Origin: Ostreococcus lucimarinus
Taxonomy: Eukaryota
NCBI GenBank assembly: GCA_000092065.1
Contig: CP000587.1
DNA: 64,000 nucleotides
Direction: 5' to 3' (one strand)
A program made the translations under genes and the position numbers. Positions within the stretch are counted from its first letter, which is position 1. The number at the start of each line of letters is the position of its first letter. Positions 27,156 through 52,938 of this stretch are shown here, one piece after another. Under the pieces are notes generated by a model. It did no database searches. It worked only from the letters and a program-made list of their open reading frames with translations, and was not told the origin of the DNA.

Positions 27156-30100
27156 ATGGGCGATGGGTCGTCCAAGGGAGACGTGGACGCGCAGAGGTTA
27201 GCGTCGGTGGCGTCCACGGCGGAGGCGATGGAGGAGCTCGGGTACGCGTGCGCGCACGCGAAAGATTCATTGATTGAAATTCTAGGGAAATTGCCAAAGT
27301 TGGACGACGCGGGGTTGGCGAAAGTGGTCGGGATGATCGCGAGGACGAGCTCTGGGAAGTTAGAAACGTCGAGGGGGGAGGCTGCGTTGGTGTCGTTGGC
27401 GAAAAGCGCCGGGATCGCGGCGCCGAGCGCGGAGGCGTTGCGATTGACGACGTGGAACGGGGACGTCGTGGTGGACGCCGTCAACGCGACGTATAAGGAT
27501 TTAAATTGGGAGAACGCGATGGAAAAGCTCGATCAACCCGAGTTTGGATGTCCGGACGCGAGTTCGTTTCAGTTGATCTGCGACATGTACTCACGAGCGA
27601 CTGGGAAGAGCTTCCCGGCGAAGGCTTTGTGCGCGGCGCCGTGGGGAAAGAATCAGGCGGGTCAGATTGAGGCGCTGCGACAACTCTTAGGTTCGCCGCA
27701 GGAGTCGTGCGATTGGGGGAGTTTGAAGCATGTCGACGTTGAAGGGACGTTAGCGGGGCCTTGGGGGTGTTTGGATTTGATGTCGACGCTTTGCTCGTTG
27801 AGCGAAACCGGACACCGAGACGCGGCGAGGGGGGCGCTCGAGCCGGGCGCCGGGCGGTCTCCGGAGACGGTGTGCATCACTCTCGCGCAAGTTTGCGACG
27901 AACACAACGCGCTCGCGCGCGATGCTTTCGGTGCGTTATTGCCTCCGTACGTGGCGACGTCACACCCTAAGTCGGGGTTGGTTTTGAGCAACGTGTGGGG
28001 GCGTCACTCGGTGGCGGTGATTCGCGCCATGGTTGACGCGCACACGTCATCACCGGCCGCGGCCGATCGTATCTTTGACGTTTGTCAAGAGTTGAACGCC
28101 TTGCAAGTTATCATCGATCGATCGCCGTTTCCCTTGGCGATTGAGATGGTTTCTATCGCCTCCGTCCGCGCGGGCGTAAACTTGGAGCAGTGGCTGCAAG
28201 AGAAGATCAAAGCCAACGGTGGCGCGTTTGTGAGCGCGTGCATGCGGTTCTTGCGCGCGAAGGCGACGCAAGAGGGTGGAGATAAGGGTGCCACGCCGCT
28301 CAAGCCAGAGGTTTTGCAGACTTTCTTGAAGGTTTTACAAGGCGCGCAGCAGACGATGCCGCCCGATTTGCAGGCGGAGCTTCGCCAACTCGTCGCGCAG
28401 ATTCAAAACTCGCCAAACAAAGGTCGAGATTCGAGCGCGGCTTCGGACGATTTGTCCGTGCAAGCCGGCACCGCGCAAGGTTTCACGCCGGACGTGGAAG
28501 AAGAGGCCAACCGCTACTTCCAGCGCGTGTATTCTATGCAGCAGTCCATCGGGGAGTTGGTCGAGGTGCTGCGCGCTTTCAGAGTGAGCCAAGTGCAACG
28601 CGAACGCGATGTGTTCTCGTGCATGGTGCACAACTTGTTTGATGAATACAAGTTCTTCCCGAAGTATCCAGAAAAGGAGTTGAGAATCACAGCTGTGCTC
28701 TTCGGTCAGCTCATCTTCCACAATCTCGTGAGTAACATCACTCTCGGCGTTGCTTTGCGTTGCGTCTTGGACGCGCTTCGCAAGCCGCAAGGATCAAAGA
28801 TGTTTGCCTTCGGGTCGGATGCTCTCGAGCAATTCAAGCGTCGACTCACTGAGTGGCCACAATACTGCCAGCACTTGGCGCAGATTCCGAATCTCGCGCA
28901 GGCACACCCTGATTTGTTGCACCTATTCTCTAAAGGTAACGATCAAACCGTGGCGCTCGGTCGAAGCGAACCGAGCATGAACACCGCGGCGAATGCCGAC
29001 GCACAACTTGCCGCTGGAGTCGCGGGAATGCGTATCGGTGGTGGCGACAGTGGAGGTGAAGGAAACCACCCACCTTTACCTCGATCACTGTCTTCCGGGA
29101 TGAACTTACCGCCTCAACCACCGGGACCTCCTCCAGCGGGAGAGTCGGCGCCCGCGCCGGCGGCCAGTCGTCTGACGACACGCGGTATGAGTACGCCAGA
29201 GATTGGTCAGATCGCTCGCGTGTCGAGCGGTGGACAAATCGCCGCGGCGGCATCCGGTGCGCCCAGCGGCTTCGCTACGTCTTTGAACATCGACACCTTG
29301 GTCGCCGCCAGCGCCGAAGCAAAGCAGCCAGACGCGGCGACAGCGGACAAGGTTCACTTTTTGGTGAACAATCTGTCGGCGGAGAACATGGAAGAAAAGG
29401 CGGCTGAAGTCAAGTCCAAGGTGAGCGCAGATCTGTACGAATGGTTTGCCGGTTATCTCGTGGTGAAGCGTGCGTCGATTGAACCAAACTACCACGCGCT
29501 TTACCTCGAGCTTCTCGAGAAGGTTGGCGACAAGAATTTGTACGCCGCGATTTTGCAGGCCACGTACCGAAACATCAAGGTTTTGTTGTCAAGCGGTAAG
29601 GTCAAGACGAACAGCGGCGAGCGCAGCTTGTTGAAGAATCTCGGCTCGTGGCTCGGTCAACTCACCATCTCGAAGCGTAAGCCCGTGCTTCAGCGTGACT
29701 TGGACCTCAAGGAGCTGATTTTGGAAAGCTACGAATCCGGTCGCATGATCGGCGTCGTGCCCTTCGTCGCCAAGGTGCTCGAACCGGCTAAAGACAACAT
29801 GATCTTTAAACCGCCGAATCCTTGGACGGTGGCCATTTTGTCGTTGTTGTGCGAAATCTATAACGAACGCGACTTGAAGCTGAACCTGAAGTTTGAGATG
29901 GAACGGCTGTTCAAGCATTTGGACGTCAACATTAAGGACATCGAGCCTTCGATGTTGCTCGCGTCTCGAATGCGCGAGCGCCAAAACAACCCCGACTTTG
30001 TCGCGGACAAGAATTTTGCAGCGCCGGTACCGTTGCAATCGGCCGCATCAGAAGGGTCGCTTCAGCAGCACGGCGTTGTCGGTCGTAGTATGGATGAGGA

Positions 30101-32612
30101 AGAGAAGACTCGTTTGCAAACGCAAAGCCTCGAGGGCGCGTTGCCAAACATGCAAGCTCACGTGCGCGTCGCGGCGGCGCCAAACTTGCCAGAATCTACT
30201 CGAGCCGCGCTCTTGCGTCTCCTCCCTGTGGCTTTGACGCAAGGTATTCGGGAGATCGTCGCGCCCGTTGTCGAACGTTCCGTGACCATCGCTTGCAAAA
30301 CATCGCAAGAGTTAGTCCGCAAGGATTTCGCCACCGAGGCTGACATCAACCGCGTGCGCAAGGCGGCGCATCTCATGGTGTCTTCGCTCGCCGGCTCGCT
30401 CGCCTTGGTGACTTGCCGAGAGCCTCTCAAGGCGAGTGTTGCGAATCAGCTTCGTGCGCTTTTGCAGCAGTCAGGTGCCGGCGCCGGCTCGGAGGCATCC
30501 GCCCTCGAAGCCGCGGTGCAATCTGCGACGGTTGACAATCTCGAATTGGGTTGCGCGCTCATTGAAAAGGCGGCGTCCGAGAAGGCGATTCGAGACATCG
30601 ATGAATCTCTCGCCGCGGCTGTGATTGTGCGTCAAAAGCATCGTGAGTCTGGTATCAATCAGCCGTTCTTTGATGCGGCCATCATGCAAGGTCGATACCC
30701 GGCGGCGCTTCCGGAGTCGCTCAGACCGCGACCTGGACAGCTCCCCACCGCCGCTCTTCGCATCTACGACGACTTTGCGCAGCTTCCTCGCGCACCGTCG
30801 GGACCGCCGCCGCCCTCGGGCGCGCCGCCGGCTTTCGCGAGACAGCCACCTTTCGGACAACCACAGCCACCGCCACCGCCTGTGGCGTATCCAGGCATGC
30901 CGCCGCCGCCACCTCCAGGTGCGCCGCCACCGCTGCCGCCGGATGTTCCGTCTGAGGGCGTCGCCGACGGCGCGCAAGACGCCGGCAAGGATTCGGCCAA
31001 GGGTCCTCCGTCTGGTGCGCATCCGCACGGTCAACCCGATCCCGCGGGCTTGCGCGAAAAGGTTGCGGCGCACTTCGACGAATGGGCTCGAGTGCAAGAT
31101 TTGCCCGTCACCGACGCGGCGAACGTGGCGTTCATGCAGCGACTCGTGGAGTCGCGTCTGCTCGCAGAGGACACCCAAGAACGCTTCTTGCGCATCTTGG
31201 TTGAACTCGCCGTCACTCACTGTCTCGGCAGCGAAGTGCCGAGCGCGACGCCTCAAGCGAGCTCGCAGCTTTCTTTCGCTGCGATCGACGCGTACGTTCG
31301 CCTCGTCACGCGATTGGTTCGTCGTCAAGAAGAACCGCTGGCGTCGAGGTTGGCATTTTTCGGCCGCGCCTTGGTCGCCGTCGTCCGCACGGCGATGCGC
31401 GACACGGATGAACGTAACGTTGCGTTTAACGCGCGACCTTACTTCCGCGCGCTCGCTGGTTTGCTCAACGAGATGCACGCCCCAGATAACGCCTTGGACT
31501 CCTCGCATCCTCAAGTTCTCGCGGCGTTTGCCTCCGCTTTTTTGGCGTTGCAACCGCTTCGCGTGCCGGGCTTTGCATTTGCCTGGCTTGAACTCGTCTC
31601 CCATCGCTGCTTCATGCCTCGTCTCTTGATCGACCACGAACAAAAGGGTTGGCCTTTGTTGCAACGATTGCTGACGGCCATCCTACGCTTCATGGAACCG
31701 CACTTGCGGACGGCAGATCTCTCTGAACCGATCAAGTTGCTGTACAAGGGCATGCTTCGCATGTTTCTCGTCTTGCTGCACGACTTCCCGGAGTTTTTGT
31801 GCAACCATCATGTCAACTTCTGCGACATCATCCCGCCCAACTGCATCCAGTTGCGCAACTTGGTGTTGTCGGCATATCCGCGCAATATGCGACTACCCGA
31901 TCCGTTCACTCCAAACTTGAAGGTGGACTTACTTCCGGAGACGCAGCAAGCGCCGAGAATCAACGCCGACGCCGACCACGCCTTCCGCTCCTCGCCCATG
32001 CGCGAAGAAGTGGATGCGTTCTTAACGACACGAAAGTCTGAGAACCTGAGCCAGCAACTGATTCATCGCTTGATGTTGTCTCCTTCAGCCGCGCTCGCGG
32101 CGGGAACAAAGTACAACGTCCCGTTGATCAACGCCTTTGTGCTCTACGTCGGCGTCCAAGCGATTCAAGCAAACCGCAGTAAGGACGCCTCGAGCGGCAT
32201 CGCGCAAAGCGCTCCGATGGAGTTGTTCTCGCAACTTATCGAATCGCTCGATATGGAGGGCCGATACCTGTTCGTGAACGCTATCGCGAATCAGCTTCGG
32301 TATCCGAACTGCCACACGCACTACTTCTCGTGCGTGATTCTCTTTTTGTTTTCCGAAGCCAAGTTCGCGATCATTCAAGAGCAAATCACGCGCGTTCTCC
32401 TCGAACGCTTGATCGTCAATCGGCCACATCCGTGGGGTTTGTTGATCACGTTCATCGAGCTCATCAAAAATCCGCGGTACAACTTCTGGGGACACGCTTT
32501 CACCAAGTGCTCGCCGGAGATCGAGCGACTCTTCGAGTCTGTCGCTCGCTCGTGCTTACCGCAACAAGACAAGGAGGGCGTCCCGAAACCTTCGCCGGTG
32601 CCCGCGTCATGA
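27156..32612 (+). CDS. CNOT1: CCR4-NOT transcription complex subunit 1 (CNOT1/NOT1 scaffold)
   Basis: Long colinear similarity including the MIF4G/CN9BD/DUF3819 regions and the NOT1 superfamily homology domain (YKGMLRMFLVLLHDFPEFLC..CDIIPPNCIQLRNLVLSAYPRNMRLPDPFTPNLK..NAIANQLRYPNCHTHYFSCVILFLFSE..RVLLERLIVNRPHPWGLLITFIELIKNPRY). Track start 27126 is GTG. First ATG is at 27156. Confidence 0.9.
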   Translation: MGDGSSKGDVDAQRLASVASTAEAMEELGYACAHAKDSLIEILGKLPKLDDAGLAKVVGMIARTSSGKLETSRGEAALVSLAKSAGIAAPSAEALRLTTWNGDVVVDAVNATYKDLNWENAMEKLDQPEFGCPDASSFQLICDMYSRATGKSFPAKALCAAPWGKNQAGQIEALRQLLGSPQESCDWGSLKHVDVEGTLAGPWGCLDLMSTLCSLSETGHRDAARGALEPGAGRSPETVCITLAQVCDEHNALARDAFGALLPPYVATSHPKSGLVLSNVWGRHSVAVIRAMVDAHTSSPAAADRIFDVCQELNALQVIIDRSPFPLAIEMVSIASVRAGVNLEQWLQEKIKANGGAFVSACMRFLRAKATQEGGDKGATPLKPEVLQTFLKVLQGAQQTMPPDLQAELRQLVAQIQNSPNKGRDSSAASDDLSVQAGTAQGFTPDVEEEANRYFQRVYSMQQSIGELVEVLRAFRVSQVQRERDVFSCMVHNLFDEYKFFPKYPEKELRITAVLFGQLIFHNLVSNITLGVALRCVLDALRKPQGSKMFAFGSDALEQFKRRLTEWPQYCQHLAQIPNLAQAHPDLLHLFSKGNDQTVALGRSEPSMNTAANADAQLAAGVAGMRIGGGDSGGEGNHPPLPRSLSSGMNLPPQPPGPPPAGESAPAPAASRLTTRGMSTPEIGQIARVSSGGQIAAAASGAPSGFATSLNIDTLVAASAEAKQPDAATADKVHFLVNNLSAENMEEKAAEVKSKVSADLYEWFAGYLVVKRASIEPNYHALYLELLEKVGDKNLYAAILQATYRNIKVLLSSGKVKTNSGERSLLKNLGSWLGQLTISKRKPVLQRDLDLKELILESYESGRMIGVVPFVAKVLEPAKDNMIFKPPNPWTVAILSLLCEIYNERDLKLNLKFEMERLFKHLDVNIKDIEPSMLLASRMRERQNNPDFVADKNFAAPVPLQSAASEGSLQQHGVVGRSMDEEEKTRLQTQSLEGALPNMQAHVRVAAAPNLPESTRAALLRLLPVALTQGIREIVAPVVERSVTIACKTSQELVRKDFATEADINRVRKAAHLMVSSLAGSLALVTCREPLKASVANQLRALLQQSGAGAGSEASALEAAVQSATVDNLELGCALIEKAASEKAIRDIDESLAAAVIVRQKHRESGINQPFFDAAIMQGRYPAALPESLRPRPGQLPTAALRIYDDFAQLPRAPSGPPPPSGAPPAFARQPPFGQPQPPPPPVAYPGMPPPPPPGAPPPLPPDVPSEGVADGAQDAGKDSAKGPPSGAHPHGQPDPAGLREKVAAHFDEWARVQDLPVTDAANVAFMQRLVESRLLAEDTQERFLRILVELAVTHCLGSEVPSATPQASSQLSFAAIDAYVRLVTRLVRRQEEPLASRLAFFGRALVAVVRTAMRDTDERNVAFNARPYFRALAGLLNEMHAPDNALDSSHPQVLAAFASAFLALQPLRVPGFAFAWLELVSHRCFMPRLLIDHEQKGWPLLQRLLTAILRFMEPHLRTADLSEPIKLLYKGMLRMFLVLLHDFPEFLCNHHVNFCDIIPPNCIQLRNLVLSAYPRNMRLPDPFTPNLKVDLLPETQQAPRINADADHAFRSSPMREEVDAFLTTRKSENLSQQLIHRLMLSPSAALAAGTKYNVPLINAFVLYVGVQAIQANRSKDASSGIAQSAPMELFSQLIESLDMEGRYLFVNAIANQLRYPNCHTHYFSCVILFLFSEAKFAIIQEQITRVLLERLIVNRPHPWGLLITFIELIKNPRYNFWGHAFTKCSPEIERLFESVARSCLPQQDKEGVPKPSPVPAS

Positions 32613-43505: not shown

Positions 43506-44249
43506 TCACTTTTTCGCGCACTCGTACTCGACGTCGCCCGAGCATTGCTTCGTGACGGAGTCGTCCAAGGCGTGCGTGTGCGGGAAGAAAGCGCTCCCAT
43601 TCAATTTGAGCTCTTGTTCAAGCGCGCGCGAATCGACGACGAGGGTTCCACATCGGCGTCCACGCCGACAGCACTCGCACTCTTCGTCGTCGTCATTCGC
43701 TGTGAGCAAGTAAAGACCGAGTAAAACGAGAAATGAAATCGTAAAAGCCAGCGCCAATTGCCCGAGCGCACCGTCGCATATTTCGTAAGAGAATTCGATG
43801 ACGTCCCCGTCCCACCATCGCCGATCGACGATACCGAAAGGCTCAACGTCAAACGAAGTCACGAAATCAATATCACGCGGCCCGAATCGACGTGGAAAGT
43901 GCTCGTGGGAAGTGATTGTCGATCCCCCGTGAAACGCCAAATCGAGAACTTCGAGAACTGTCGCGTCGTCGACGGTGACGTCCCGCGACGCGTCGTCCAT
44001 CGACGACTCGGACCAATCCGCGCCGTCCAAACGAAAAGGGTCTTCGATCATCGTCAAGGTCACGATCGCCTCGGCGTTTAATGGATCGATGGTGTCGTCG
44101 GGTGTCGTCGCTGAATCGTCGGGTACAACGGAACTTGAACCGACAAAGTTGGTTCCATCGGTATCTTGAGACGCCGCGAGCGCGGCGAGCGCGAGCGCGA
44201 GCGCGAGCGCGAGACCCGCGCGAGATCGGCCGACCATTTTGTACGCCAT
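43506..44249 (-). CDS. Hypothetical secreted/membrane protein with (LA)n signal peptide and C-terminal TM anchor plus Cys cluster
   Basis: ATG at 44249-44247 (MAYKMVGRSRAGLALALALALAALAAS). C-terminal LALAFTISFLVLLGLYLLTA followed by ECECCRRGRRC. The longer track ORF to 44411 begins at a non-ATG codon. Confidence 0.5.
   Translation of the reverse strand: MAYKMVGRSRAGLALALALALAALAASQDTDGTNFVGSSSVVPDDSATTPDDTIDPLNAEAIVTLTMIEDPFRLDGADWSESSMDDASRDVTVDDATVLEVLDLAFHGGSTITSHEHFPRRFGPRDIDFVTSFDVEPFGIVDRRWWDGDVIEFSYEICDGALGQLALAFTISFLVLLGLYLLTANDDDEECECCRRGRRCGTLVVDSRALEQELKLNGSAFFPHTHALDDSVTKQCSGDVEYECAKK
44176..44214. repeat. (GCGAGC)n hexanucleotide microsatellite encoding the (LA)n core of the signal peptide of the 43506-44249 gene
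   Basis: gcgagcgcggcgagcgcgagcgcgagcgcgagcgcgag read directly. Confidence 0.9.
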
Positions 44250-44523
44250 GCTCGCGCTCACCTCGACCGTCGACGCGCGCGAGTGTGAGAAATCTTCCAC
44301 GTAAGCGTTTCTCGTCGTCTCAAACTCCGACGAAACGACGCGACTCGCGTCGAACGCGCGCGCCGCGCGCCGATCGAGACGCGCTCCACCGAACGCCACC
44401 GCGCGATTCATCGCGCATCGCTCGCGTCGCGCGCGCGTTCGCGCTCGCGCGCATCACTCATTTTAATCATCACAACGCGTCGACGCGGCGTCGCGGCGAC
44501 TTCGACGTTCGCTCGCCGCGCGT

Positions 44524-45039
44524 TTACGATTCCCCATCCTTCTTCGCCGCTTTCTTCGCGTCCCTCGCCGCGCGCTTCGCCGCCAGCGCCGCCTTCTTCT
44601 CCTCCCTCTCCCTCGCCTTTTGCGTTTCCCTCGCCGCCGCGTCTCGCGCCCCCTCGTCCGTCGTCTTCCCGTCCAGTCGCGGCCGCGTCTTCGGCGCTCG
44701 CGCGCCCACCGCGTGATCCCTCGGCAGCAGCGCCGCCGTCCCGGCGCCGCCGCCCGACCACCCGACCATCGTCGAGTCGCACACGACGCCCTCGCTCACG
44801 ACGCCGCCGACGCGTCGCGCCGTCACGCGCGTGCCGTCGCGCAGCGTCGCGCCCGCGCGCGCGACGACGATTTTCTTTCCGACGTCGACGTTCGGCGCGT
44901 TCGTCGCGATCTTCAGCGGCGCGTCGCCGCCGCAGTCGATCGTCAGCAGTCGGAGGGCGTCGTGGCCGTCGATCGCGACGCGGGCGAGGATCTCGCCGCA
45001 GCACAGCGGCGCGCCGTCGTCGTCGTCGTCGTCGGACAT
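44524..45039 (-). CDS. Stand-alone tRNA-binding domain protein (Myf/EMAP-II/Trbp111/Arc1p-C-like) with poly-Asp N-terminus and Lys/Ala-rich C-terminal tail
   Basis: ATG at 45039-45037. GEILARVAIDGHDALRLLTIDCGGDAPLKIATNAPNVDVGKKIVVARAGATLRDGTRV..GVVSEGVVC fits the OB-fold tRNA_bind domain pattern. Confidence 0.7.
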   Translation of the reverse strand: MSDDDDDDGAPLCCGEILARVAIDGHDALRLLTIDCGGDAPLKIATNAPNVDVGKKIVVARAGATLRDGTRVTARRVGGVVSEGVVCDSTMVGWSGGGAGTAALLPRDHAVGARAPKTRPRLDGKTTDEGARDAAARETQKAREREEKKAALAAKRAARDAKKAAKKDGES

Positions 45040-45241
45040 TTAATTTAAGAATCGATTCGCGTCGACGAATGACGACAGTGCGCGACGCTGCGCGACGACG
45101 CGCGCGCGGCGACGCGACGCGTCGGTGGATGCGCCGCAGACGCGGCGAACGACGCGCGTCGCGCGTCGCCGCGACGCGAGACGCGCGCGAAAAGCGGTGA
45201 TTCATTGACGCATTTGGAATTCGCGCAAAAGACGCGGAAAG

Positions 45242-48200
45242 ATGGCGGTGGGAACGCGACGGGAGCGCGATGCGTCGCGAATGTCGCGCGCGCACGACGC
45301 GGATGACGCCGCGGACGCGCGACCGTGGCGATGGCGGCGATGCGGGACGTTTCACGCGTCCGAGGGAGGGATTTGGGGGACGAGCGGGACGACGACGGCG
45401 CGCGCGGCGACGCGATGGGAAAACGCGCCGCTGGAGGGGTTCGGTTTGCGCTTCGCGAGCGATGCGGAGGAGGAGACGACGACGCGCGCGCGAGCGTTGG
45501 AGGCGTGCGCGAGAGAAACGCTCGGAGAGGGCGGGTTGACGAATGAGATGTTGGAGGAGACGGCGCGCGCGACGACGACGCCGAGCGCGGCGAGCGACGA
45601 CGCGGCGACGATTTCGAACATCGAGACGCGGTTGGCGTCGACGCGCGCGATGTTGAGGGGATTGGGCGTCGATGAAGCGAAAACGAAAGCGGTGATGGCG
45701 CGGGCGATGGACGCGTGGGGAGGGGAGATTCGAGAACGCGAACGAATCGTCGACGCGCTGGAGACGCGCTTGCTCGAGGGAGACGAGGACGAGGAGGCGT
45801 TGAATTACATCTTGCGTCGTGCGGTGGCGCGGTTGAGGGTTTTGAAGACGAGTGGAGCTCGTTCGAGGGTCGGCTTGCGGGCGTGTGTGGCGAGCGCGAC
45901 GGCGTCCGTCGCCGCGGCGTCCACCACCGCGGCCGTCGCGGCAAAGTCTACGCCCATCGCGAAGAAAGGCCGCGGTGGAATGTTCTCTTGCTGCGGCGCA
46001 GATTCGACGGCGATCGATGACGACGCTCAAGAGCTCGCGTACGCGCCTTCGGAAAGTGCAGCCGTTGAATGCGAACCGCTTACTTGCGTCGTACGTCTTT
46101 CACGCGTTGGGGAAGAAACGGCGAGCGCATACTCGTCGACATCTCGCGCATACTCGTCGACATCTCGCGCATCTTCGCGAGAAGGAGGCGTTTTGTTCAA
46201 CGCCACGACTCCGTTATTGACCGTTTCCGAAGATGACACGATTGAGTTCAACTTTTACGCGGGCGACGCGCACGAATCCGTCGACGAGAGTGCAGTCGAT
46301 GCGAATGATAGGATGCGCGCCAACGCCGTCATGTCGCCGCACGTCGGGGAAACAAGTGGCAAGATTAGAGGAAGCGCCACCATTTGTGTCGCAGATTTAG
46401 CAGAGACGACGAGAAAAGACGAACCGCACGTGCTCACGATTTTCATCGAGCGGCCGAAGAGTGGAGGGTCACCGGGTCAGGTCTACGGTAAAGCAATCGT
46501 ACGCATTGACAAGTTCGTCGAATCGTTTGACGACGGAACGACGCAGATCGCGACGGCGAAGGGCGACGTTCTGAAAGATGCCGCCGTGCTTTTCGCGGCG
46601 CTCGACAAGTCGAGTGTGCCAAATGTAAAACAGCTTGTGCGCAGCTTCGTGGATCAGCGCGGCGCATGCCCGTCCATTGCTGCACTGGCCGAAATGATTA
46701 CGCTTTGCATTGATTGGCGACTCGAACGCCCGCAACTTGATAGATTACGCCACTGCACAATGGAAGTGTTCGCGGCAATTGCGGTGAATCGAATTACGGC
46801 GAGTGAGAAGCAGCGGTTTGACGAACTTTCCGCGCTCATGTCGAAACAACTAGAAACAGAGCTGTGCAATATTTTGCCGACGGCAAAAGTCGCCGAGCAA
46901 GAACTCGTCGATGTGCTTGACATGGAGTATTCTGCCAGTATCGCCCGCGCGATCATTCCATTATTTGCTTTGACCCTTGGGAGCATTTCAGCCACTCGGC
47001 TCGTGTTGCGGTTGAAAAAGGTCGTTCGCGAGGCCATGCGTAAACGTTGTGTCGAGCACATGGTGAGGGAAAATCCGACAAAGGGCCCTCCCACGGTTGC
47101 GTGCGTGACGTCTATGATATGCAAACTCACCAAACGTTTGCCGCTCGACGCTGCGATTTTATCGCAGTTTCCGTCCGAAGTAGAAGCTCTTTCGGAGGCT
47201 GCGTCGGCGTCGAGTGCTTTCATCGCAAACATTATTACTGAAGTATTTCAGGCGATCGCGAGCATGCGTAGCCCGCCTGATTACGACTCCGGGATGATGG
47301 CACTAGACGATGCGCTGTGCGCGCACAGGAGGGCATTAAAGCGATATGATTTGGTGCTTGCTATGCAGCCGATTTCGTCCCGGTTCATCGATCGGCTCCT
47401 TCAGCCGGCTTTGGATGAAACGCTAGGCACAGTACACCATGCGCTGGTTGCGTGGGTCAAGCAAGAAATTGATGGCGAAAGAACAAATTTAGAGCCCGTG
47501 GACGTCGAAAGAGGAGCGATGCACAGTATGTCGTGCGTCAATCTTTTTTGTGTACTCTACAACATCGATAGAGCAGCGCAAGATCACATTCTTCACGGCG
47601 AAAGAGCGGCGTTCAACGCTACATCGTTGAGTCAAATGTGCTATGAAGTGTTTAAGACGTACGTCAATATTTATGAAAGAGCGTGCTTGGAGGCGATCCA
47701 GAACGCGCGCTTGCATTTGATGCAAGACTCAAAGGGGCAGAATACGAAGACGGCGAATGTTTCGGACGTAAAGTCTCTGATGGTTGGTAACTTTTACACG
47801 CGTCTAAGTAATATTCATCAGTGCATCCTCGCGATCGAACCGTTCATGGAAGAGATGCCGTTACTGTGGTGTTCGTCAAAGTCGGAGTTCGACGAGACAC
47901 TCAAGCGTCAAGCGAGCTCGGAGTATGGTATCGATGACGATCAAGTGATATTGTTTGAGGACGATGAAGTCCATGTCTTCGACGAGAAAAGAATGCTGGA
48001 TACTGATTTCTTCGCGAACAGAATTGTACAGAAACTTCGCACCGTTCGCGCAAACGTCATTGCGTCATTAACGGAGTTGATCGAAGAACGGATTGCACCG
48101 TTTATTCGTGTCGCTATTCTTGACAAGGAAGAAAAGACACGTTCTGCGGCGGTACGCATAGTCTTCATGATGATTGACTCGGAGCTCAAGCTTATGAACG

Positions 48201-49498
48201 AGAGGCTTGCGCCAGGGGCGTTTCGACTGGCGTTGTCTTCGATGCACAAAGGGGTGTGTGATGCGATCGAACAACTCATCCTACACAGACCGATAGAGGA
48301 GGGAGCGCTAGAAGCCAGTGAGCGTTGGAGAGGATTACCAACGCTCACAGAAATGCAACATTCCTTAGTCGTCGAGCTCATGGCAGATGTCAGAGAATTC
48401 TTCCACTGCGACGGTGCCGGCGAGCCTGAGTCAATTCTCAAGGATGGCGAAGGCAGACTGCGCCGTTTGTTGAATTTATGGTTTACGCCCACGATCGAGA
48501 TTATGCGAGAATTCTGGCAGTTGAAAGAAGTATTGTCCCGATCGATCGTTTCGGCGCATGGCAAACAAATCCGACTGCGGTCGATCGGTGGAGTGGCCGT
48601 TCAAGACATCTTGCGCTTTTTGCGTCAGCGTTCAAACGACGCAACAGCAATGGATCTTTACAACGAACAGAGCATGCTGATTACGAAAATGAGTCTAAAA
48701 GCACTCTTTGGCGAACAGTTAATGAGTATCGACTCTTTACTCGGTGCCTGGGTTTGCCGCGATGGTTCTGGCTTAATAGGACGATTCTACATCACGGCTA
48801 CGCAATTGGCGTTTTCGACATCTGGAATGAGCATCGATCACCCGCACGACAGCCAGACAGCGGTCGTCCGAGAGATTCGCAGAATCGCGAACATCTCGCG
48901 TATCGATGCTGCTGATGGTACGCCTGGGCTTCGCATCACATTCGACGATCGTCGATCATTCACTTTCAGTGAATTCGGTGGAATGCACACCGAGTTAAAC
49001 ATTCAAGCTCGAGAGAGGGATTCGTGCGTCGCGGTGATTCGCACGAATCCTTGCTTCTTGCAGCGTCCGGTATTCATGCACGATATTCAAGTCGCACAAA
49101 TTTCAGATCATGCGTGCGAGACTTTAGATGAGGTTGTCAGCGTAGAAACGGCGCAGCGAATGGAGCCACCCACTCTGCCGGCGGATGAGGAAGTGATCGC
49201 CACGTGCGTCTGCGCGCGTGCGAACGGCTTAGCACGCGACTTGGGGAAGTTTACGGTGGCGAGCCAATCGTGCGTGTTTTTACCAGTCAACGGGTCAGGT
49301 CGTGGAGTGTTGTATAAGACTATGACGTCAACGAAGAGGATGCCACAGTTGCGGCCATTCGGTTGGAAGAATGCTGATATCATCATCCCGATACGACATT
49401 ACGAAGAACCCGTGTTGCGCTTGACGGGGATGACGCTCGTTGAAGCCCAGTCGGTTTTCGACGCACTGTCGAGCGCCATTACCGCTTACAAAAGTTAG
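45242..49498 (+). CDS. Large hypothetical protein (1418 aa) with a C2-like beta-sandwich region, a long helical middle and two C-terminal PH/GRAM-like modules
   Basis: ATG at 45242. Uninterrupted 4.2-kb ORF. The first 250 codons are GC-rich low complexity, and the remainder is markedly lower-GC than flanking genes. Domain calls are tentative. Confidence 0.65.
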   Translation: MAVGTRRERDASRMSRAHDADDAADARPWRWRRCGTFHASEGGIWGTSGTTTARAATRWENAPLEGFGLRFASDAEEETTTRARALEACARETLGEGGLTNEMLEETARATTTPSAASDDAATISNIETRLASTRAMLRGLGVDEAKTKAVMARAMDAWGGEIRERERIVDALETRLLEGDEDEEALNYILRRAVARLRVLKTSGARSRVGLRACVASATASVAAASTTAAVAAKSTPIAKKGRGGMFSCCGADSTAIDDDAQELAYAPSESAAVECEPLTCVVRLSRVGEETASAYSSTSRAYSSTSRASSREGGVLFNATTPLLTVSEDDTIEFNFYAGDAHESVDESAVDANDRMRANAVMSPHVGETSGKIRGSATICVADLAETTRKDEPHVLTIFIERPKSGGSPGQVYGKAIVRIDKFVESFDDGTTQIATAKGDVLKDAAVLFAALDKSSVPNVKQLVRSFVDQRGACPSIAALAEMITLCIDWRLERPQLDRLRHCTMEVFAAIAVNRITASEKQRFDELSALMSKQLETELCNILPTAKVAEQELVDVLDMEYSASIARAIIPLFALTLGSISATRLVLRLKKVVREAMRKRCVEHMVRENPTKGPPTVACVTSMICKLTKRLPLDAAILSQFPSEVEALSEAASASSAFIANIITEVFQAIASMRSPPDYDSGMMALDDALCAHRRALKRYDLVLAMQPISSRFIDRLLQPALDETLGTVHHALVAWVKQEIDGERTNLEPVDVERGAMHSMSCVNLFCVLYNIDRAAQDHILHGERAAFNATSLSQMCYEVFKTYVNIYERACLEAIQNARLHLMQDSKGQNTKTANVSDVKSLMVGNFYTRLSNIHQCILAIEPFMEEMPLLWCSSKSEFDETLKRQASSEYGIDDDQVILFEDDEVHVFDEKRMLDTDFFANRIVQKLRTVRANVIASLTELIEERIAPFIRVAILDKEEKTRSAAVRIVFMMIDSELKLMNERLAPGAFRLALSSMHKGVCDAIEQLILHRPIEEGALEASERWRGLPTLTEMQHSLVVELMADVREFFHCDGAGEPESILKDGEGRLRRLLNLWFTPTIEIMREFWQLKEVLSRSIVSAHGKQIRLRSIGGVAVQDILRFLRQRSNDATAMDLYNEQSMLITKMSLKALFGEQLMSIDSLLGAWVCRDGSGLIGRFYITATQLAFSTSGMSIDHPHDSQTAVVREIRRIANISRIDAADGTPGLRITFDDRRSFTFSEFGGMHTELNIQARERDSCVAVIRTNPCFLQRPVFMHDIQVAQISDHACETLDEVVSVETAQRMEPPTLPADEEVIATCVCARANGLARDLGKFTVASQSCVFLPVNGSGRGVLYKTMTSTKRMPQLRPFGWKNADIIIPIRHYEEPVLRLTGMTLVEAQSVFDALSSAITAYKS

Positions 49499-49575
49499 AC
49501 GTCAAAAACGCGAAAGAACAGCAGAGTAGCGGTGTGATATATCATTATGTAGTCGTAGCAAATCGTGTTTCATAT

Positions 49576-52500
49576 CTACGCTGCGTCCAATTCAACAGTC
49601 AACACGGCGAGGTTGTCGTTTATGATGGATGAGTACGTTTCGACGGCATCTGGCAAAATCTCTTCGAGCGCTGAAATGAGCTTTTGCGTTTGTTTGAGCC
49701 AGTCGATTGCTTCCTTCGTTCGCATCGATCTCTCATGTCGAACGGCACGGTTGAAACAAGTTGAGAGCAACCACTGCGCTTCCACTGGGGGATATGAAGG
49801 ATGCAGTGCGAGGAACTCTTCGGCCGAGTCGTAAAGCGAGTGAATCACGTCGTCTTTGCTTTTGTACACTCGCGAAGCGAGTTGAATTTGTTTACGCATT
49901 AATCGCGCGATGAGAGCAACGTCTTGAATCAAATACTTCTTCATAGCTTTCCCAACCGCTTCATATGCTCTCGAAACGGTGACCAAATCAGACGTTCTCA
50001 TCGCCGCGCCGCGGTCGGCAATCATCAAGAGCGTGTTTATTGAAGCTTCGTCATCCAACGTCTTTGTCGATAATATTTCGATTATTTTGCCTTGCAACGC
50101 GACGTCACGCTGGGCGCAAGCGATTTCATATTCAAGGACACTCGCAACCTTTCGCAACTCTTCGTACCTTTCCTCTTCAGCGTTTTTCAACAAGCTGTGG
50201 AGATTGGCCATCGCACCCTTTGAGCGGGCGATATTCTTCGCTTCGCGTTCTTTCCGAGATTGTTCGTCTCCTACATCAGTAGCTGGGTTATAGCTGGTGA
50301 GCGATGCGATGGACAACAGAAGCGCGACTGCTTGTCGATAGCCATACTCTGCACGATCGTCTGCATCCAAACCTTCTGGAATCTTGTTTAATTTGGAAAT
50401 CACAAGCGCACATAAAAACATAAACTGATAGGCCGCTTCTGTTTCTGACGACTTTTCGTACGCGTCGAGGCCAGTATTCCACGAAAAGTCGGCGAGATAC
50501 CGTGCCTGTCGAACATCTGTGAGAAGATTCAAATTCGACGCTCGCTTCATGAACTCGCTGAACAACTCGGCTGATTCAGAAAACGTCTTCGAGTCAAAGT
50601 CACCCATTTTGGCCATTTTTACGTGTCGCAGATAACTGCAAAATATAAAAGTCTCTTGCTTCATCATATTATCGGTACCCATATTGTTCAAAATCATATC
50701 GTAAAGGCTACGAAAAGCGTCTGCGGCCGTGGCGTGGTGCTTTGAGCCATCGAGTTCTCCCGCAACGTATAACAACGCATCAGATTCACCTGCCTTTGCA
50801 AACGTTCGAATCGATTCTCCCAGGCCCGAGACGTCGTCAGAAATGAGCTGAAACTTTACGTTCAACAATGTTGTGGACACATCCGTCGCGGTCTTGTCCG
50901 CCAGCAAACTTCGCAGCGACTCCTTTGCTTGTTCGATATCGCCATTCTCGAGATCGCACATCACTTGCAGCCGGATAACCGGTACCGCTGCGTTGCTCAC
51001 GGTCTTCGACTTTCTTTGTGACGATAATGGGAGCGTCATACCAAACAGTTTTCGTGCCAGTGAGTACTTATTTTGCATGTACATGTCAGATGCAGCGTTC
51101 CAGATGATGGCGTATGCACGAGATTGCCCGTCGCGAGAAAAACCGATTTCCTTGAAACTATCGGTATCTGTAAGAAGTCGATCCATATAAGACAGAACAT
51201 CGTTTGCTACTTGTTCATCTACAGTGAGCGTCGTATCCAGTAGAGCTTCAAAGATATCAGTAATCATTTCTTGTCGTCTCGCCTTTGGACAGCCGCTCAG
51301 TCGTTTGGCGAGCGGAGCGATGCACGACGCAACGGCGCCAGCGCCGCATTCGCTCTTCGCCAGATTGACACAGCACGTATGGAGGACATTCACAACAGAG
51401 TTTTCATCGTTGAGTACATTTTCGAGTATGCTGCACGCTTTCGAAATCTCACCACTCCCTGAGAACGCTTCAATCAGCATGTTGTCCATGAGAAACGATT
51501 CGGTTAACGCCTGCAAATCGCGAGCCAAGACGTTATCACTATTTTCACACTTTTTCGCGTAAGACTTGATTATTTTCATTTTATCCAACACTTTAAGAGC
51601 CTCGTTGTACCTTCTTCCGTGAATGAATAGTCTGGCAAGGTTATGCAAGATGCGAATGTACAAACCATCGGCGCGAACCAGGCGGTGGTCCTCGCACACG
51701 AGTTTCTCATCTAAATCAAAGTGCGCCGCGTTATCTTGATGGGAAGACGTCGACCAAGAATTCGGAGTGATCGTGAACAAGTCGTAGTATGCTGCGATTA
51801 GCTCTTTGACGAGGAAACCAACTTTTCTGTCGAACACGGCTTCGTCATCTGCTGATTGAAGCTTTTCTGAAACCACGAAATTCTCAGCCAAGTTTATCTT
51901 CGCGCTGATCAATGTCGTTACGCACATAGTCTCATTTCCTTTATTCTTTTCGCTTTCAGAAAGCGATTTGGCGTCTTGAAAAAAGTCCCGAGCACCGGCG
52001 ACGTTGCCGAGATAAAAACAGTTCTTTGCGCGTGACGTGGCGGCTTCAATCGTCTGTAACATTGTCTCGGCGTCGAATTCGCCATTTCGGTTCAAGAACG
52101 AATTACCGTATGATTCACCGATCACGAACTGCTCTTCCGCCGCCTTGAACTCACCCGCATCGTGCAGCAACTTTGCGAGCGTCAAGTGATTTGAAATGCC
52201 GACAGCGAGACTCGAAATTTCAGGCGCCCCAGCGCTCACAGCGAAGCCATCCGCAAATCCCAACGCGGCGTCCAGCAACTCACACGCGAAGTACCTCAAA
52301 TCAAGCAACGGACCAATCATTTCCTTCTTCACAATCCCGCTTTCCGCCGTCGTCTCCAACGCCGTTTTCTCGATTGCGAAATTCCAGCATCGTTGCGACA
52401 TGTGCCTCGCTAAATCGCTCGCCTTCGTCGCATTCGTCGACCACAAATCTCGCAATCGCTCACTCACCCGCCGCACCTCACTCACCGTATTCGTCATCTC

Positions 52501-52938
52501 ATCCTCGCTCGATATTCTCTTCGCCAATTCCGCGCGCTTCAAAGAATCATGAAACGTCGTCCAGACATCATCCATCGCGTCGCGCTCCGGCGTCTCCGAT
52601 CTCGCCGCGCCGCGCGTCTTCGTTGTCTCCGAGACGCCACCATCCTCCGCACCCGCTCCGTCGCTCTCGCGCCGCTCCAGCCCCGCGCCTATAGAAACTT
52701 CGCTCAAAGAAATATCCATCAGCGCTTCCGCGCCTTTTCGAGCGCCCGTCGGCGTCGCATCGCGCGGTGCCGTCCTCGTTTCGTCGCGTTTGCGTTTCGG
52801 TCCGGAATCGCTCCCAGAGTGCGTGGTTTCGCTTTTCGACGCCGCGGGCGACGCGGTCGACGCGGGTGCGTCGTCAGCGCGAGGTGGATCCGATGTGTCG
52901 GTATCGGTTCGTTTGAACGGGCTCTGGAAACCCGGCAT
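49576..52938 (-). CDS. TPR-like helical-repeat protein, candidate ZIP4/SPO22/TEX11-family meiotic (ZMM) protein
   Basis: ATG at 52938-52936. 1120-aa all-helical repeat protein. C-terminal region EAQWLLSTCFNRAVRHERSMRTKEAIDWLKQTQKLISALEE resembles the conserved ZIP4 C-terminus ([39 protein letters not shown]). Low GC3. Confidence 0.55.
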   Translation of the reverse strand: MPGFQSPFKRTDTDTSDPPRADDAPASTASPAASKSETTHSGSDSGPKRKRDETRTAPRDATPTGARKGAEALMDISLSEVSIGAGLERRESDGAGAEDGGVSETTKTRGAARSETPERDAMDDVWTTFHDSLKRAELAKRISSEDEMTNTVSEVRRVSERLRDLWSTNATKASDLARHMSQRCWNFAIEKTALETTAESGIVKKEMIGPLLDLRYFACELLDAALGFADGFAVSAGAPEISSLAVGISNHLTLAKLLHDAGEFKAAEEQFVIGESYGNSFLNRNGEFDAETMLQTIEAATSRAKNCFYLGNVAGARDFFQDAKSLSESEKNKGNETMCVTTLISAKINLAENFVVSEKLQSADDEAVFDRKVGFLVKELIAAYYDLFTITPNSWSTSSHQDNAAHFDLDEKLVCEDHRLVRADGLYIRILHNLARLFIHGRRYNEALKVLDKMKIIKSYAKKCENSDNVLARDLQALTESFLMDNMLIEAFSGSGEISKACSILENVLNDENSVVNVLHTCCVNLAKSECGAGAVASCIAPLAKRLSGCPKARRQEMITDIFEALLDTTLTVDEQVANDVLSYMDRLLTDTDSFKEIGFSRDGQSRAYAIIWNAASDMYMQNKYSLARKLFGMTLPLSSQRKSKTVSNAAVPVIRLQVMCDLENGDIEQAKESLRSLLADKTATDVSTTLLNVKFQLISDDVSGLGESIRTFAKAGESDALLYVAGELDGSKHHATAADAFRSLYDMILNNMGTDNMMKQETFIFCSYLRHVKMAKMGDFDSKTFSESAELFSEFMKRASNLNLLTDVRQARYLADFSWNTGLDAYEKSSETEAAYQFMFLCALVISKLNKIPEGLDADDRAEYGYRQAVALLLSIASLTSYNPATDVGDEQSRKEREAKNIARSKGAMANLHSLLKNAEEERYEELRKVASVLEYEIACAQRDVALQGKIIEILSTKTLDDEASINTLLMIADRGAAMRTSDLVTVSRAYEAVGKAMKKYLIQDVALIARLMRKQIQLASRVYKSKDDVIHSLYDSAEEFLALHPSYPPVEAQWLLSTCFNRAVRHERSMRTKEAIDWLKQTQKLISALEEILPDAVETYSSIINDNLAVLTVELDAA

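Follow-up and report, generated by a model that had tools for sequence, protein, structure and literature searches.

A convergent ZIP4 orthologue and Mamiellales-only putative GRAM gene in a GC trough of Ostreococcus lucimarinus that probably follows a general 5'-to-3' GC polarity

The deepest GC trough in the window analysed here, a stretch of 64 kb of Ostreococcus lucimarinus DNA, lies over two long convergent genes, and our reading of it has three parts. Profile homology identifies the minus-strand gene (gene B) as an orthologue of ZIP4/SPO22/TEX11, the dip would come mainly from a general 5'-to-3' GC polarity, and the pairing of ZIP4 with its plus-strand partner (gene A) is conserved. Taken together, we assign these a probability of about 0.75. 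The trough probably reflects, for the most part, an ordinary composition trend that is not specific to these two genes. ZIP4/SPO22/TEX11 is the TPR scaffold of the ZZS module (Zip2-Zip4-Spo16) and promotes class I meiotic crossovers. The stretch and its genes are the following:

46601..52600, no strand: lowest-GC 6-kb stretch, GC 0.498, centred on the 3'-end junction of genes A and B (sliding 6-kb GC; 1-kb profile)
45242..49498, plus strand: gene A, uninterrupted 1418-aa ORF of Mamiellales-type algae only, N-terminus GC-rich and conserved (ORF; four homologues)
49499..49575, no strand: AT-rich spacer of 77 bp between the two stop codons, GC 0.39 (composition)
49576..52938, minus strand: gene B, ZIP4/SPO22/TEX11 orthologue, uninterrupted 1120-aa ORF, GC 0.506, GC3 0.573 (ORF and profile homology)

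Among all 6-kb windows (mean GC 0.597, sd 0.032) the minimum at 46601 is 3.1 sd below the mean, and the second-lowest non-overlapping one has a GC of 0.565. The 1-kb values from 46001 to 52000 are 0.549, 0.502, 0.502, 0.504, 0.486 and 0.464, compared to a whole-window mean of 0.598. The first-pass annotation had described a low-GC pocket with two giant intronless genes at this location. Both ORFs are indeed there, with most of their length inside the trough, and the drop relative to the flanks is real. However, the low GC is not a block but a smooth two-sided gradient along the 5'-to-3' axes of both genes, with flanks of normal GC and limits that coincide exactly with the two start codons. GC3 is 0.81 at the 5' end of gene A and 0.65-0.73 at that of gene B, and reaches 0.45-0.58 where the 3' ends meet. 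Within gene A it drops from 0.81 to about 0.53-0.56, the overall value being 0.623 and that from nt 46043 onwards 0.582. L001, L006 and L007, three further Ostreococcus-like genomes, have the same dip at the orthologous position. Rfam, tRNA and tandem-repeat scans revealed no non-coding element in the pocket, and the repeat scan found no repeats or transposable elements in the trough, only short GC-rich microrepeats located outside it.

Two compositional statements of that annotation have to be modified. Most genes were said to run at 62-70% GC, while the genes of the window actually span about 0.55-0.75. The dip was also connected to A/T-ending codons, but the first and second codon positions hold about 45% of the GC deficit of ZIP4, a deficit that therefore reflects amino-acid composition besides synonymous codon choice.

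The statistics that place the trough within a general trend are based on 37 genes of one 64-kb window, plus orthologous and hence non-independent loci. Across the 37 genes, GC3 has a median of 0.75. In the 35 genes other than A and B, GC3 per successive 100 codons is 0.82, 0.75, 0.72, 0.68 and 0.67, and about 0.64 thereafter (Wilcoxon test of the first against the last 100 codons, p = 1e-4), and GC1 and GC2 likewise drop from 5' to 3' (p = 9e-4 and 1e-6, respectively). The spacers follow the same polarity, every convergent one having a GC of 0.38-0.55 and the divergent, promoter-side ones mostly 0.6-0.76, and small troughs of the same shape are found at every convergent junction in the window. 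GC3 is furthermore correlated with gene length (rho -0.63, p = 2.5e-5), also when the two focal genes are left out (rho -0.57, p = 3e-4). Relative to the length fit, gene A lies at -0.4 sd and ZIP4 at -1.6 sd. The GC3 of gene A is thus fully predicted by length and 5' distance and that of ZIP4 mostly, and the residual of the latter leaves room for a low-expression component without demonstrating one. The polarity is repeated in L001, L006 and L007. The gradient is weak in the distant contig L004, in which the orthologue of gene A is GC-rich (GC3 0.81).

In GC-rich plants such as grasses, GC3 gradients are commonly explained by GC-biased gene conversion tied to recombination. The window resembles them in the steep GC3 drop from the start codon and in the lower GC3 of long genes, and AT-biased mutation with a GC above equilibrium is found likewise in O. 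tauri. It differs in that the genes are intronless and very tightly packed, and in that the polarity extends to the first two codon positions and to tiny spacers (3'-3' ones AT-rich, 5'-5' ones GC-rich). Steep 5'-3' GC gradients as such are known in GC-rich plants (PMC4684703), while our literature search found no account of a promoter-to-terminator GC polarity for Ostreococcus.

A possible mechanism can be formulated as follows. Transcription units are polar in this genome, with a GC that peaks around the promoter and gene start and decays towards the 3' end. In O. tauri the equilibrium GC is 36.8%, compared to an observed 59%, and GC-biased gene conversion is considered likely (PMC5455958, PMC8557840). 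With mutation biased towards an equilibrium of about 37%, some force would have to keep GC high, apparently one that acts mostly close to gene starts. It might be GC-biased gene conversion driven by recombination near promoters, or some other process linked to the 5' end; repair or mutation coupled to transcription, or else selection acting on 5' regions and on AT-rich 3' signals, could also lie behind the polarity. Two tail-to-tail genes of more than 1100 codons each leave 7.7 kb without a promoter, and it is there that GC would consequently relax furthest. That ZIP4 lies slightly below the trend would fit a secondary share of relaxed codon selection, in a meiotic gene that is seldom expressed.

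The same idea can be taken as the main cause, namely that weak or sex-only expression of both genes relaxes the selection for GC-ending optimal codons and lets third positions drift towards AT. ZIP4 indeed has the lowest GC3 and GC4 in the window, its distal GC3 of 0.531 is 2.2 sd below the distal parts of the other genes (0.673, sd 0.064), and in L004 it is again the locally lowest (GC3 0.72 versus 0.79-0.89). The distal GC3 values, 0.684 for CNOT1, 0.648 for Vps35, 0.604 for a GATA/bromodomain gene, 0.585 for gene A and 0.531 for ZIP4, are in an order that fits housekeeping genes above conditional ones. CNOT1 (27156-32612, 1818 aa) is longer and has a convergent gene next to it, yet keeps a distal GC3 of 0.68, which means that promoter distance cannot explain everything and that gene-specific offsets exist. 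However, relaxed codon selection cannot account for the gradient itself, since this extends to GC1, GC2 and the non-coding spacers and is shared by the 35 other genes. The share of the ZIP4 deficit at positions 1 and 2, the agreement of gene A with its length prediction and the GC-rich orthologue of gene A in L004 also speak against it, and as the main cause we consider it unlikely. The first-pass proposal that the low GC3 implies weak or conditional expression of the two genes is therefore not needed, as length and 5' distance predict gene A and most of ZIP4. In published O. tauri data, moreover, codon bias is weakly correlated with expression (Spearman rho -0.22, PMC3673656).

Another option is a local recombination cold spot that lowers GC-biased gene conversion over 6-7 kb irrespective of gene structure, that is, a miniature outlier region. 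The known outlier regions of Mamiellophyceae, a big outlier chromosome with a candidate mating-type region and a small outlier chromosome, have atypical gene structure, introns, repeats and suppressed recombination. In Ostreococcus, GC serves as a proxy for recombination, and the outlier and mating-type regions have 9-17% lower GC (PMC8557840). The trough is similar in its drop of about 10 points in a genome of roughly 60% GC, and the dip is kept in four Ostreococcus genomes. However, its smooth two-sided gradient tracks the gene axes and stops exactly at the start codons, similarly shaped smaller troughs lie at all convergent junctions, and the genes lack introns, are single-copy and keep their synteny, with normal flanks and no repeats or transposable elements seen. 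A cold spot is thus very unlikely, and membership in an outlier chromosome is rejected on synteny and on the scale, about 6 kb between normal-GC flanks as compared to hundreds of kb.

Finally, foreign or recently acquired DNA (horizontal transfer or virus), which the compositional contrast and the confinement of gene A to Mamiellales-type algae might suggest, is effectively refuted by the vertical ancestry of ZIP4, whose closest outgroup is the collinear, full-length streptophyte ZIP4, by the synteny of both genes in four Ostreococcus-type genomes and their pairing in a distant genus-level relative, and by the normal high GC of both 5' ends.

Turning to the identity of gene B, the relevant features are:

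52591..52938, minus strand: N-terminal extension of ZIP4, aa 1-116, predicted disordered, GC-rich, no counterpart in streptophyte ZIP4 (AF2 pLDDT <50; hhalign start)
49579..52590, minus strand: predicted all-alpha TPR solenoid of ZIP4, aa 117-1119, about 46 helices (AF2 mean pLDDT 76; Foldseek)
51034..51666, minus strand: match to Pfam SPO22 (PF08631), aa 425-635, below threshold (E 0.011, 15.6 bits)
49750..49755, minus strand: F1062-N1063, aligned to the aromatic-Asn 'WN' motif of the ZIP4 C-terminal TPRs, W replaced by F (alignment with streptophyte ZIP4)

The proposal that this gene belongs to the family of Arabidopsis ZIP4, yeast Zip4/Spo22 and mammalian TEX11 is borne out by several results. 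A search of 1.84 billion proteins with the family profile gave 28 matches, which comprise only fragments of the family and SPO22-domain/ZIP4-type proteins. In all nine long distant matches tested, Pfam SPO22 exceeds its gathering score, and distant matches from Selaginella, Araucaria and Marchantia are named ZIP4 by their sources. The nearest outgroup relatives are streptophyte ZIP4 proteins, to which hhalign aligns gene B collinearly over the full length (probability 99.8%, E 4.4e-30, 818 columns, query 178-1114 versus template 67-908 of 924). The expected SPO22/TPR similarity is thus supported by profile homology and by the modelled solenoid, but the PF08631 match of the protein itself stays under the cutoff of 27.5 bits. 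Six of its 11 close homologues do match this model (best E 2.6e-6), as does a more distant Mamiellales-like ZIP4 orthologue, P0095 (44 bits), and several Pfam TPR models match gene B weakly.

AF2 predicts a solenoid built of helices throughout, the last of them at the C-terminus, in line with yeast Zip4, which has 21 TPRs along its length and such a helix at the end (PMC8763056). Its best Foldseek matches in the PDB are generic long TPR scaffolds alone (IFT-A, Ctr9, Ski3), with TM-scores of 0.1-0.2, and searching the PDB by sequence and by profile gave no relative. As the first-pass annotation had noticed, the C-terminus has a ZIP4 signature. It is the most conserved stretch of the protein, and its alignment with streptophyte ZIP4 retains the motif E.QWL.ST.(W/F)NRA. 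F1062-N1063, within QWLLSTCFNRA, is aligned with WNRA, which is invariant in seven ZIP4 proteins of streptophytes, the Ostreococcus and L004 proteins having F at the position of W. The WN motif in the C-terminal TPRs of ZIP4 forms the binding patch for Ecm11/TEX12 (PMC8763056), and from that work we infer that F1062-N1063 is equivalent to W918-N919 of yeast. Compared to plant ZIP4, gene B is about 200 aa longer, with about 175 extra residues at the N-terminus. The family is fast-evolving, with 46-59% identity among Ostreococcus-type species, and ZIP4 is vertically inherited. The presence of ZIP4 in Ostreococcus is already known from a published survey, which lists it for O. tauri, O. lucimarinus and Micromonas and reports Ostreococcus orthologues of SHOC1, HEI10, MER3 and MSH5, with MSH4 and PTD given as ND (PMC9957857 supplementary file 2).

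We next consider the convergent pair. Genes A and B are single-copy and syntenic in Ostreococcus-type genomes, and they remain paired in a distant Mamiellales-like contig in which every other neighbour is different. The tail-to-tail arrangement as such is conserved across Mamiellales-type genomes. The pairing is not universal, as the neighbour of ZIP4 in a green-algal contig (L008) is no homologue of gene A. The stop codons are 30-77 bp apart, and the 3' ends therefore probably overlap. Such conservation would fit a functional or regulatory linkage, without demonstrating one. Gene A could be an unrecognised sex/meiosis gene co-induced with ZIP4, or, alternatively, convergent transcription could regulate ZIP4 by antisense interference. 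To our knowledge, sex has never been observed in this alga. Such roles, with the pair as a conserved functional unit of cryptic Mamiellales sex, are improbable in our view, as is the separate reading of the promoter-centred GC polarity as the footprint of frequent promoter-initiated meiotic recombination.

The significance of these results beyond annotation is small. ZIP4 confirms that the ZMM crossover scaffold is retained in this Ostreococcus-type genome, which fits the indirect evidence for sex. The GC content, the compact genes without introns and the relatives detected all point to a genome of this type. In terms of method, a low GC3 in a long gene is an unreliable sign of low expression in this genome, because in every gene, and in the spacers too, GC drops away from the gene start. 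As leads, the conserved pair and the promoter-to-terminator polarity are both possibly worth a genome-wide look, and the polarity could read out where recombination or another GC-raising process acts.

The features within gene A are as follows:

46079..46516, plus strand: beta-strand-rich region, aa about 280-425, 'C2-like' in the first-pass annotation, unconfirmed (low-confidence AF2 model)
46125..46172, plus strand: perfect 21-bp tandem duplication, AYSSTSR twice (repeat scan; comparison with P0012)
48779..48952, plus strand: probable GRAM (PH-like) domain core, aa 1180-1237 (PF02893; L004 orthologue)

Gene A has four homologues only, the N-terminus being conserved among them, and a third search with a 6-sequence profile gave nothing beyond the same four proteins. 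The whole protein has no match in Pfam, PDB sequences or PDB profiles. Of its earlier description as 'C2/PH-like', the second half finds support. PF02893 (GRAM) scores 13.4 bits (E 0.069) on the window protein, under the cutoff of 23.6, but 30.3 bits on the L004 orthologue (BLASTP 3e-73), in two stretches at the aligned position, and the GRAM core is followed by a second similar beta-plus-helix module that reaches the C-terminus. A C2 domain, on the other hand, was not detected, since aa 268-440 have no Pfam match even at E up to 10, and the L004 orthologue has low-complexity sequence instead of this region. The AF2 model of aa 268-1418 (3-sequence alignment) shows strands and a long helical body but is unusable, with a pLDDT of 38.

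There is a faint likeness to MUN tethers of the PATROL1/Munc13 type, the TPR_PATROL1 model (PF25761) matching the L004 orthologue weakly (E 0.16, 11 bits). A segment-wise scan of gene A gave, in addition to GRAM, faint hints of PATROL1, Rabin8 and PP4R3, none of them usable, and stathmin matches (E ~0.2) were dismissed as coiled-coil noise. Gene A differs from GRAM/MUN proteins in having no significant match to other families and in its restriction to Mamiellales-type algae. The protein is large and specific to this lineage, its body is helical and its C-terminus carries probable GRAM (PH-like) modules; most likely it acts as a membrane-associated tether or adaptor. The AYSSTSR duplication distinguishes it from P0012, a 99%-identical metagenomic protein that lacks it.

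The low-GC pocket reported by the first-pass annotation is real and is the deepest of the window. When a 6-kb window is slid over the 64 kb, which has a GC content of 59.8% as a whole, the minimum starts at 46601 with a GC of 0.498, compared to a mean of 0.597 (sd 0.032) and a next lowest non-overlapping value of 0.565. The six 1-kb windows covering 46001-52000 have GC values of 0.549, 0.502, 0.502, 0.504, 0.486 and 0.464. The two long uninterrupted ORFs of that annotation are also present at its coordinates, and they are convergent, with 77 bp between their stop codons:

45242-49498, + strand: gene A, 1418 aa, uninterrupted ORF, GC3 0.623
49576-52938, - strand: gene B (ZIP4), 1120 aa, uninterrupted ORF, GC3 0.573

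The trough is not a block but a gradient that descends from both sides. GC3 starts at 0.81 (codons 1-100) in gene A and at 0.65-0.73 in ZIP4, and it goes down to 0.45-0.58 near the 3'-3' junction of the two genes. Third positions account for only ca 55% of the GC deficit of ZIP4, which relative to the other genes is lower by 0.08 in GC1, by 0.07 in GC2 and by 0.18 in GC3.

The composition is in fact polar along every transcription unit, as seen for the 37 genes that could be delimited in the window (median GC3 0.75) and their spacers. Longer genes have lower GC3 (Spearman -0.63, p = 2.5e-5), also with the two genes of the pocket left out (-0.57, p = 3e-4). Fitted to the remaining genes, the length relation leads one to expect a GC3 of 0.647 in gene A, where 0.623 is observed (-0.4 sd), and of 0.667 in ZIP4, where 0.573 is observed (-1.6 sd). 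Along the other 35 genes, the mean GC3 per 100-codon bin is 0.82, 0.75, 0.72, 0.68 and 0.67, and then ca 0.64 (first versus last 100 codons, p = 1e-4), while GC1 goes from 0.65 to about 0.59-0.62 (p = 9e-4) and GC2 from about 0.55-0.56 to about 0.43-0.44 (p = 1e-6). The convergent (3'-3') spacers are all AT-rich, with GC of 0.38-0.55, the one between gene A and ZIP4 being at 0.39, whereas the divergent (5'-5') ones are mostly at 0.6-0.76. These patterns are repeated at three orthologous Ostreococcus-type loci, called L001, L006 and L007.

The pocket is thus largely an ordinary outcome of the length and orientation of its two genes in a genome whose composition is polar throughout. In O. tauri, mutation-accumulation data give a mutational equilibrium of 36.8% GC, compared to the observed 59%, and the authors hold GC-biased gene conversion, selection, or both, responsible for the excess (PMC5455958, PMC8557840). 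On the simplest reading, the GC-raising force, whatever its nature, would be strongest close to where genes begin. A tail-to-tail arrangement of two genes longer than 1100 codons would then leave 7.7 kb without a promoter, and it is there that GC would relax furthest. Steep 5'-to-3' GC gradients are known from GC-rich plant genomes (PMC4684703), which the Ostreococcus window resembles in this respect; in the literature searched, we found no earlier description of such a polarity for Ostreococcus.

The first-pass annotation had instead attributed the low GC to very weak or conditional expression of both genes. This can be at best a secondary factor, and for one of the two genes. Distal GC3, that is, GC3 beyond codon 300, varies between genes, which means that promoter distance is only part of the explanation:

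Distal GC3 by gene
CNOT1, 1818 aa: 0.684
Vps35, 810 aa: 0.648
GATA/bromodomain gene, 1329 aa: 0.604
Gene A, 1418 aa: 0.585
ZIP4, 1120 aa: 0.531

The value for ZIP4 lies 2.2 sd under the distal mean of the other genes (0.673, sd 0.064), and ZIP4 is also the lowest-GC3 gene (0.72 vs 0.79-0.89) on L004, a distant Mamiellales-like contig. In O. tauri, more highly expressed genes have a stronger codon bias, and the optimal codons are almost all G- or C-ending, but the correlation is weak, with a rho of only -0.22 (PMC3673656). Judged from composition, a contribution of low expression is therefore plausible for ZIP4 and unnecessary for gene A, whose orthologue on L004 is GC-rich (GC3 0.81). As the main cause, weak expression is unlikely, since the GC3 of gene A fits its length and the polarity is general. 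Moreover, because GC declines also at non-synonymous sites and in spacers, selection on synonymous codons alone cannot be the force.

CNOT1 (Not1, 27156-32612, + strand), the longest gene of the window, departs most from a rule based on promoter distance alone: its GC3 stays at ca 0.68-0.70 throughout despite its length and a convergent downstream neighbour. The largest negative length-corrected GC3 residual, -2.3 sd, belongs to a 661-aa ORF at 410-2395 (+ strand; GC3 0.58) with no Pfam match, and it exceeds that of either gene of the pocket.

Two further readings were considered and rejected: foreign DNA, on the vertical inheritance of ZIP4 and the synteny of the locus, and a region like those of the outlier chromosomes, from which the trough differs in its scale, its normal flanks and its intronless, single-copy genes.

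Besides the polarity, only the convergent pair itself merits a genome-wide look. ZIP4 and gene A are convergent also at L001, L006 and L007, with spacers of 29-60 bp and syntenic flanks (a tRNA-binding protein on one side; EF-hand, GATA/bromodomain, PhyH and deoxyhypusine synthase on the other). On L004 (9061-16561), their orthologues lie tail to tail, 73 bp apart. This contig has 62% GC and carries a radial-spoke gene, which indicates a flagellate relative as its source, probably a Micromonas-like one. For the remaining eight genes of L004, no counterpart turned up in any part of the 64 kb. On L008, a more remote green-algal contig, the pair is absent, the gene adjoining ZIP4 being unrelated to gene A. 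That the two genes have stayed neighbours hints at linkage, such as overlapping 3' ends or shared regulation, although to call this significant one would need to know how often adjacent genes in general stay together between these genera.

As to the identity of gene B, sequence comparison makes it a ZIP4. The protein alone gives weak TPR matches and a sub-threshold SPO22 match in Pfam (PF08631, E 0.011, 15.6 bits vs a cutoff of 27.5, aa 425-635). It has ten homologues with identities of 43-59%, and SPO22 is matched in 6 of the 11 family members (best E 2.6e-6). The family profile is far more telling. Searched against 1.84 billion representative proteins, it yields 28 matches only; all nine long distant ones that were scanned have SPO22 above the gathering score. 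The source names of distant matches include 'TPR repeat-containing protein ZIP4' and 'Protein ZIP4 homolog' (Selaginella, Araucaria, Marchantia), and the Chlorokybus and Spirogloea entries are those given as ZIP4 in PMC9957857. When the family profile is aligned to one built from seven streptophyte ZIP4 proteins, the probability is 99.8% (E 4.4e-30, 818 columns), with residues 178-1114 collinear with 67-908 of the 924-residue template, that is, over the full length. In the AlphaFold model (pLDDT 76), aa 1-116 are disordered and are followed by ca 46 helices arranged as a solenoid. Foldseek returns generic long TPR scaffolds only, and no ZIP4 structure was found in the PDB by sequence, profile or Foldseek searches with gene B.

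The first-pass annotation had described the SPO22-like signature as C-terminal. The family holds, but the Pfam match is in the middle of the protein; the C-terminus is nevertheless the best-conserved stretch. It contains the motif E.QWL.ST.(W/F)NRA, common to gene B and all the streptophyte ZIP4 proteins. The aromatic-Asn pair in it would correspond to W918-N919 in yeast and W857-N858 in mouse, the patch that binds central-element proteins of the synaptonemal complex (PMC8763056), and alignment to the motif places it at:

49750-49755, - strand: F1062-N1063, aromatic-Asn pair of gene B

In every Ostreococcus-type sequence, as in P0095, the ZIP4 of L004, phenylalanine takes the place of the otherwise invariant tryptophan, which is kept in streptophytes and another green alga.

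The ZIP4 identification is thus correct but not new, since Thangavel et al. 2023 (PMC9957857 supplementary file 2) have already published orthologues from both Micromonas species as well as from O. tauri and O. lucimarinus. For both Ostreococcus species, the same file gives MSH5, SHOC1, HEI10, MER3 and ZIP4, with MSH4 and PTD not detected. MSH5 without MSH4 would be odd and may reflect a detection failure. The meiotic toolkit of that survey also includes DMC1, HOP2, MND1, REC8 and SPO11-2. On another green-algal metagenome contig, which carries P0129 (ENA ERZ1426847), the gamete-fusion gene HAP2-GCS1 lies ca 10 kb from ZIP4.

Gene A has four homologues only, all Ostreococcus-type, and their conservation of its GC-rich N-terminus indicates a genuine long ORF. 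Searched at full length, the protein matches nothing in Pfam or among PDB sequences. Its L004 orthologue (BLASTP 3e-73, 28% identity across 800 residues) has GRAM above threshold (30.3 bits, two stretches), and gene A itself matches the GRAM model weakly at aa 1180-1237. Of the earlier 'C2/PH-like' description, the PH-like part therefore probably stands; the C2 part does not, as aa 268-440 have no C2 match and the L004 orthologue lacks that region. The long helical body gives a faint PATROL1-like match (E 0.16), and the structure model is unusable (pLDDT 38). As a working guess, gene A could be a membrane-associated tether or adaptor.

A scan of the pocket detected neither RNA families nor tRNAs, and no repeats of note. 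At 44000-45950, upstream of gene A and in its first 230 codons, there is a high density of short GC-rich microrepeats (periods 2-21), which are almost absent from the trough. Gene A also contains:

46125-46172: perfect 21-bp tandem duplication, 2.3 copies, adding AYSSTSR

This duplication is missing from the metagenomic protein P0012, which is 99% identical, and it is probably a strain polymorphism.
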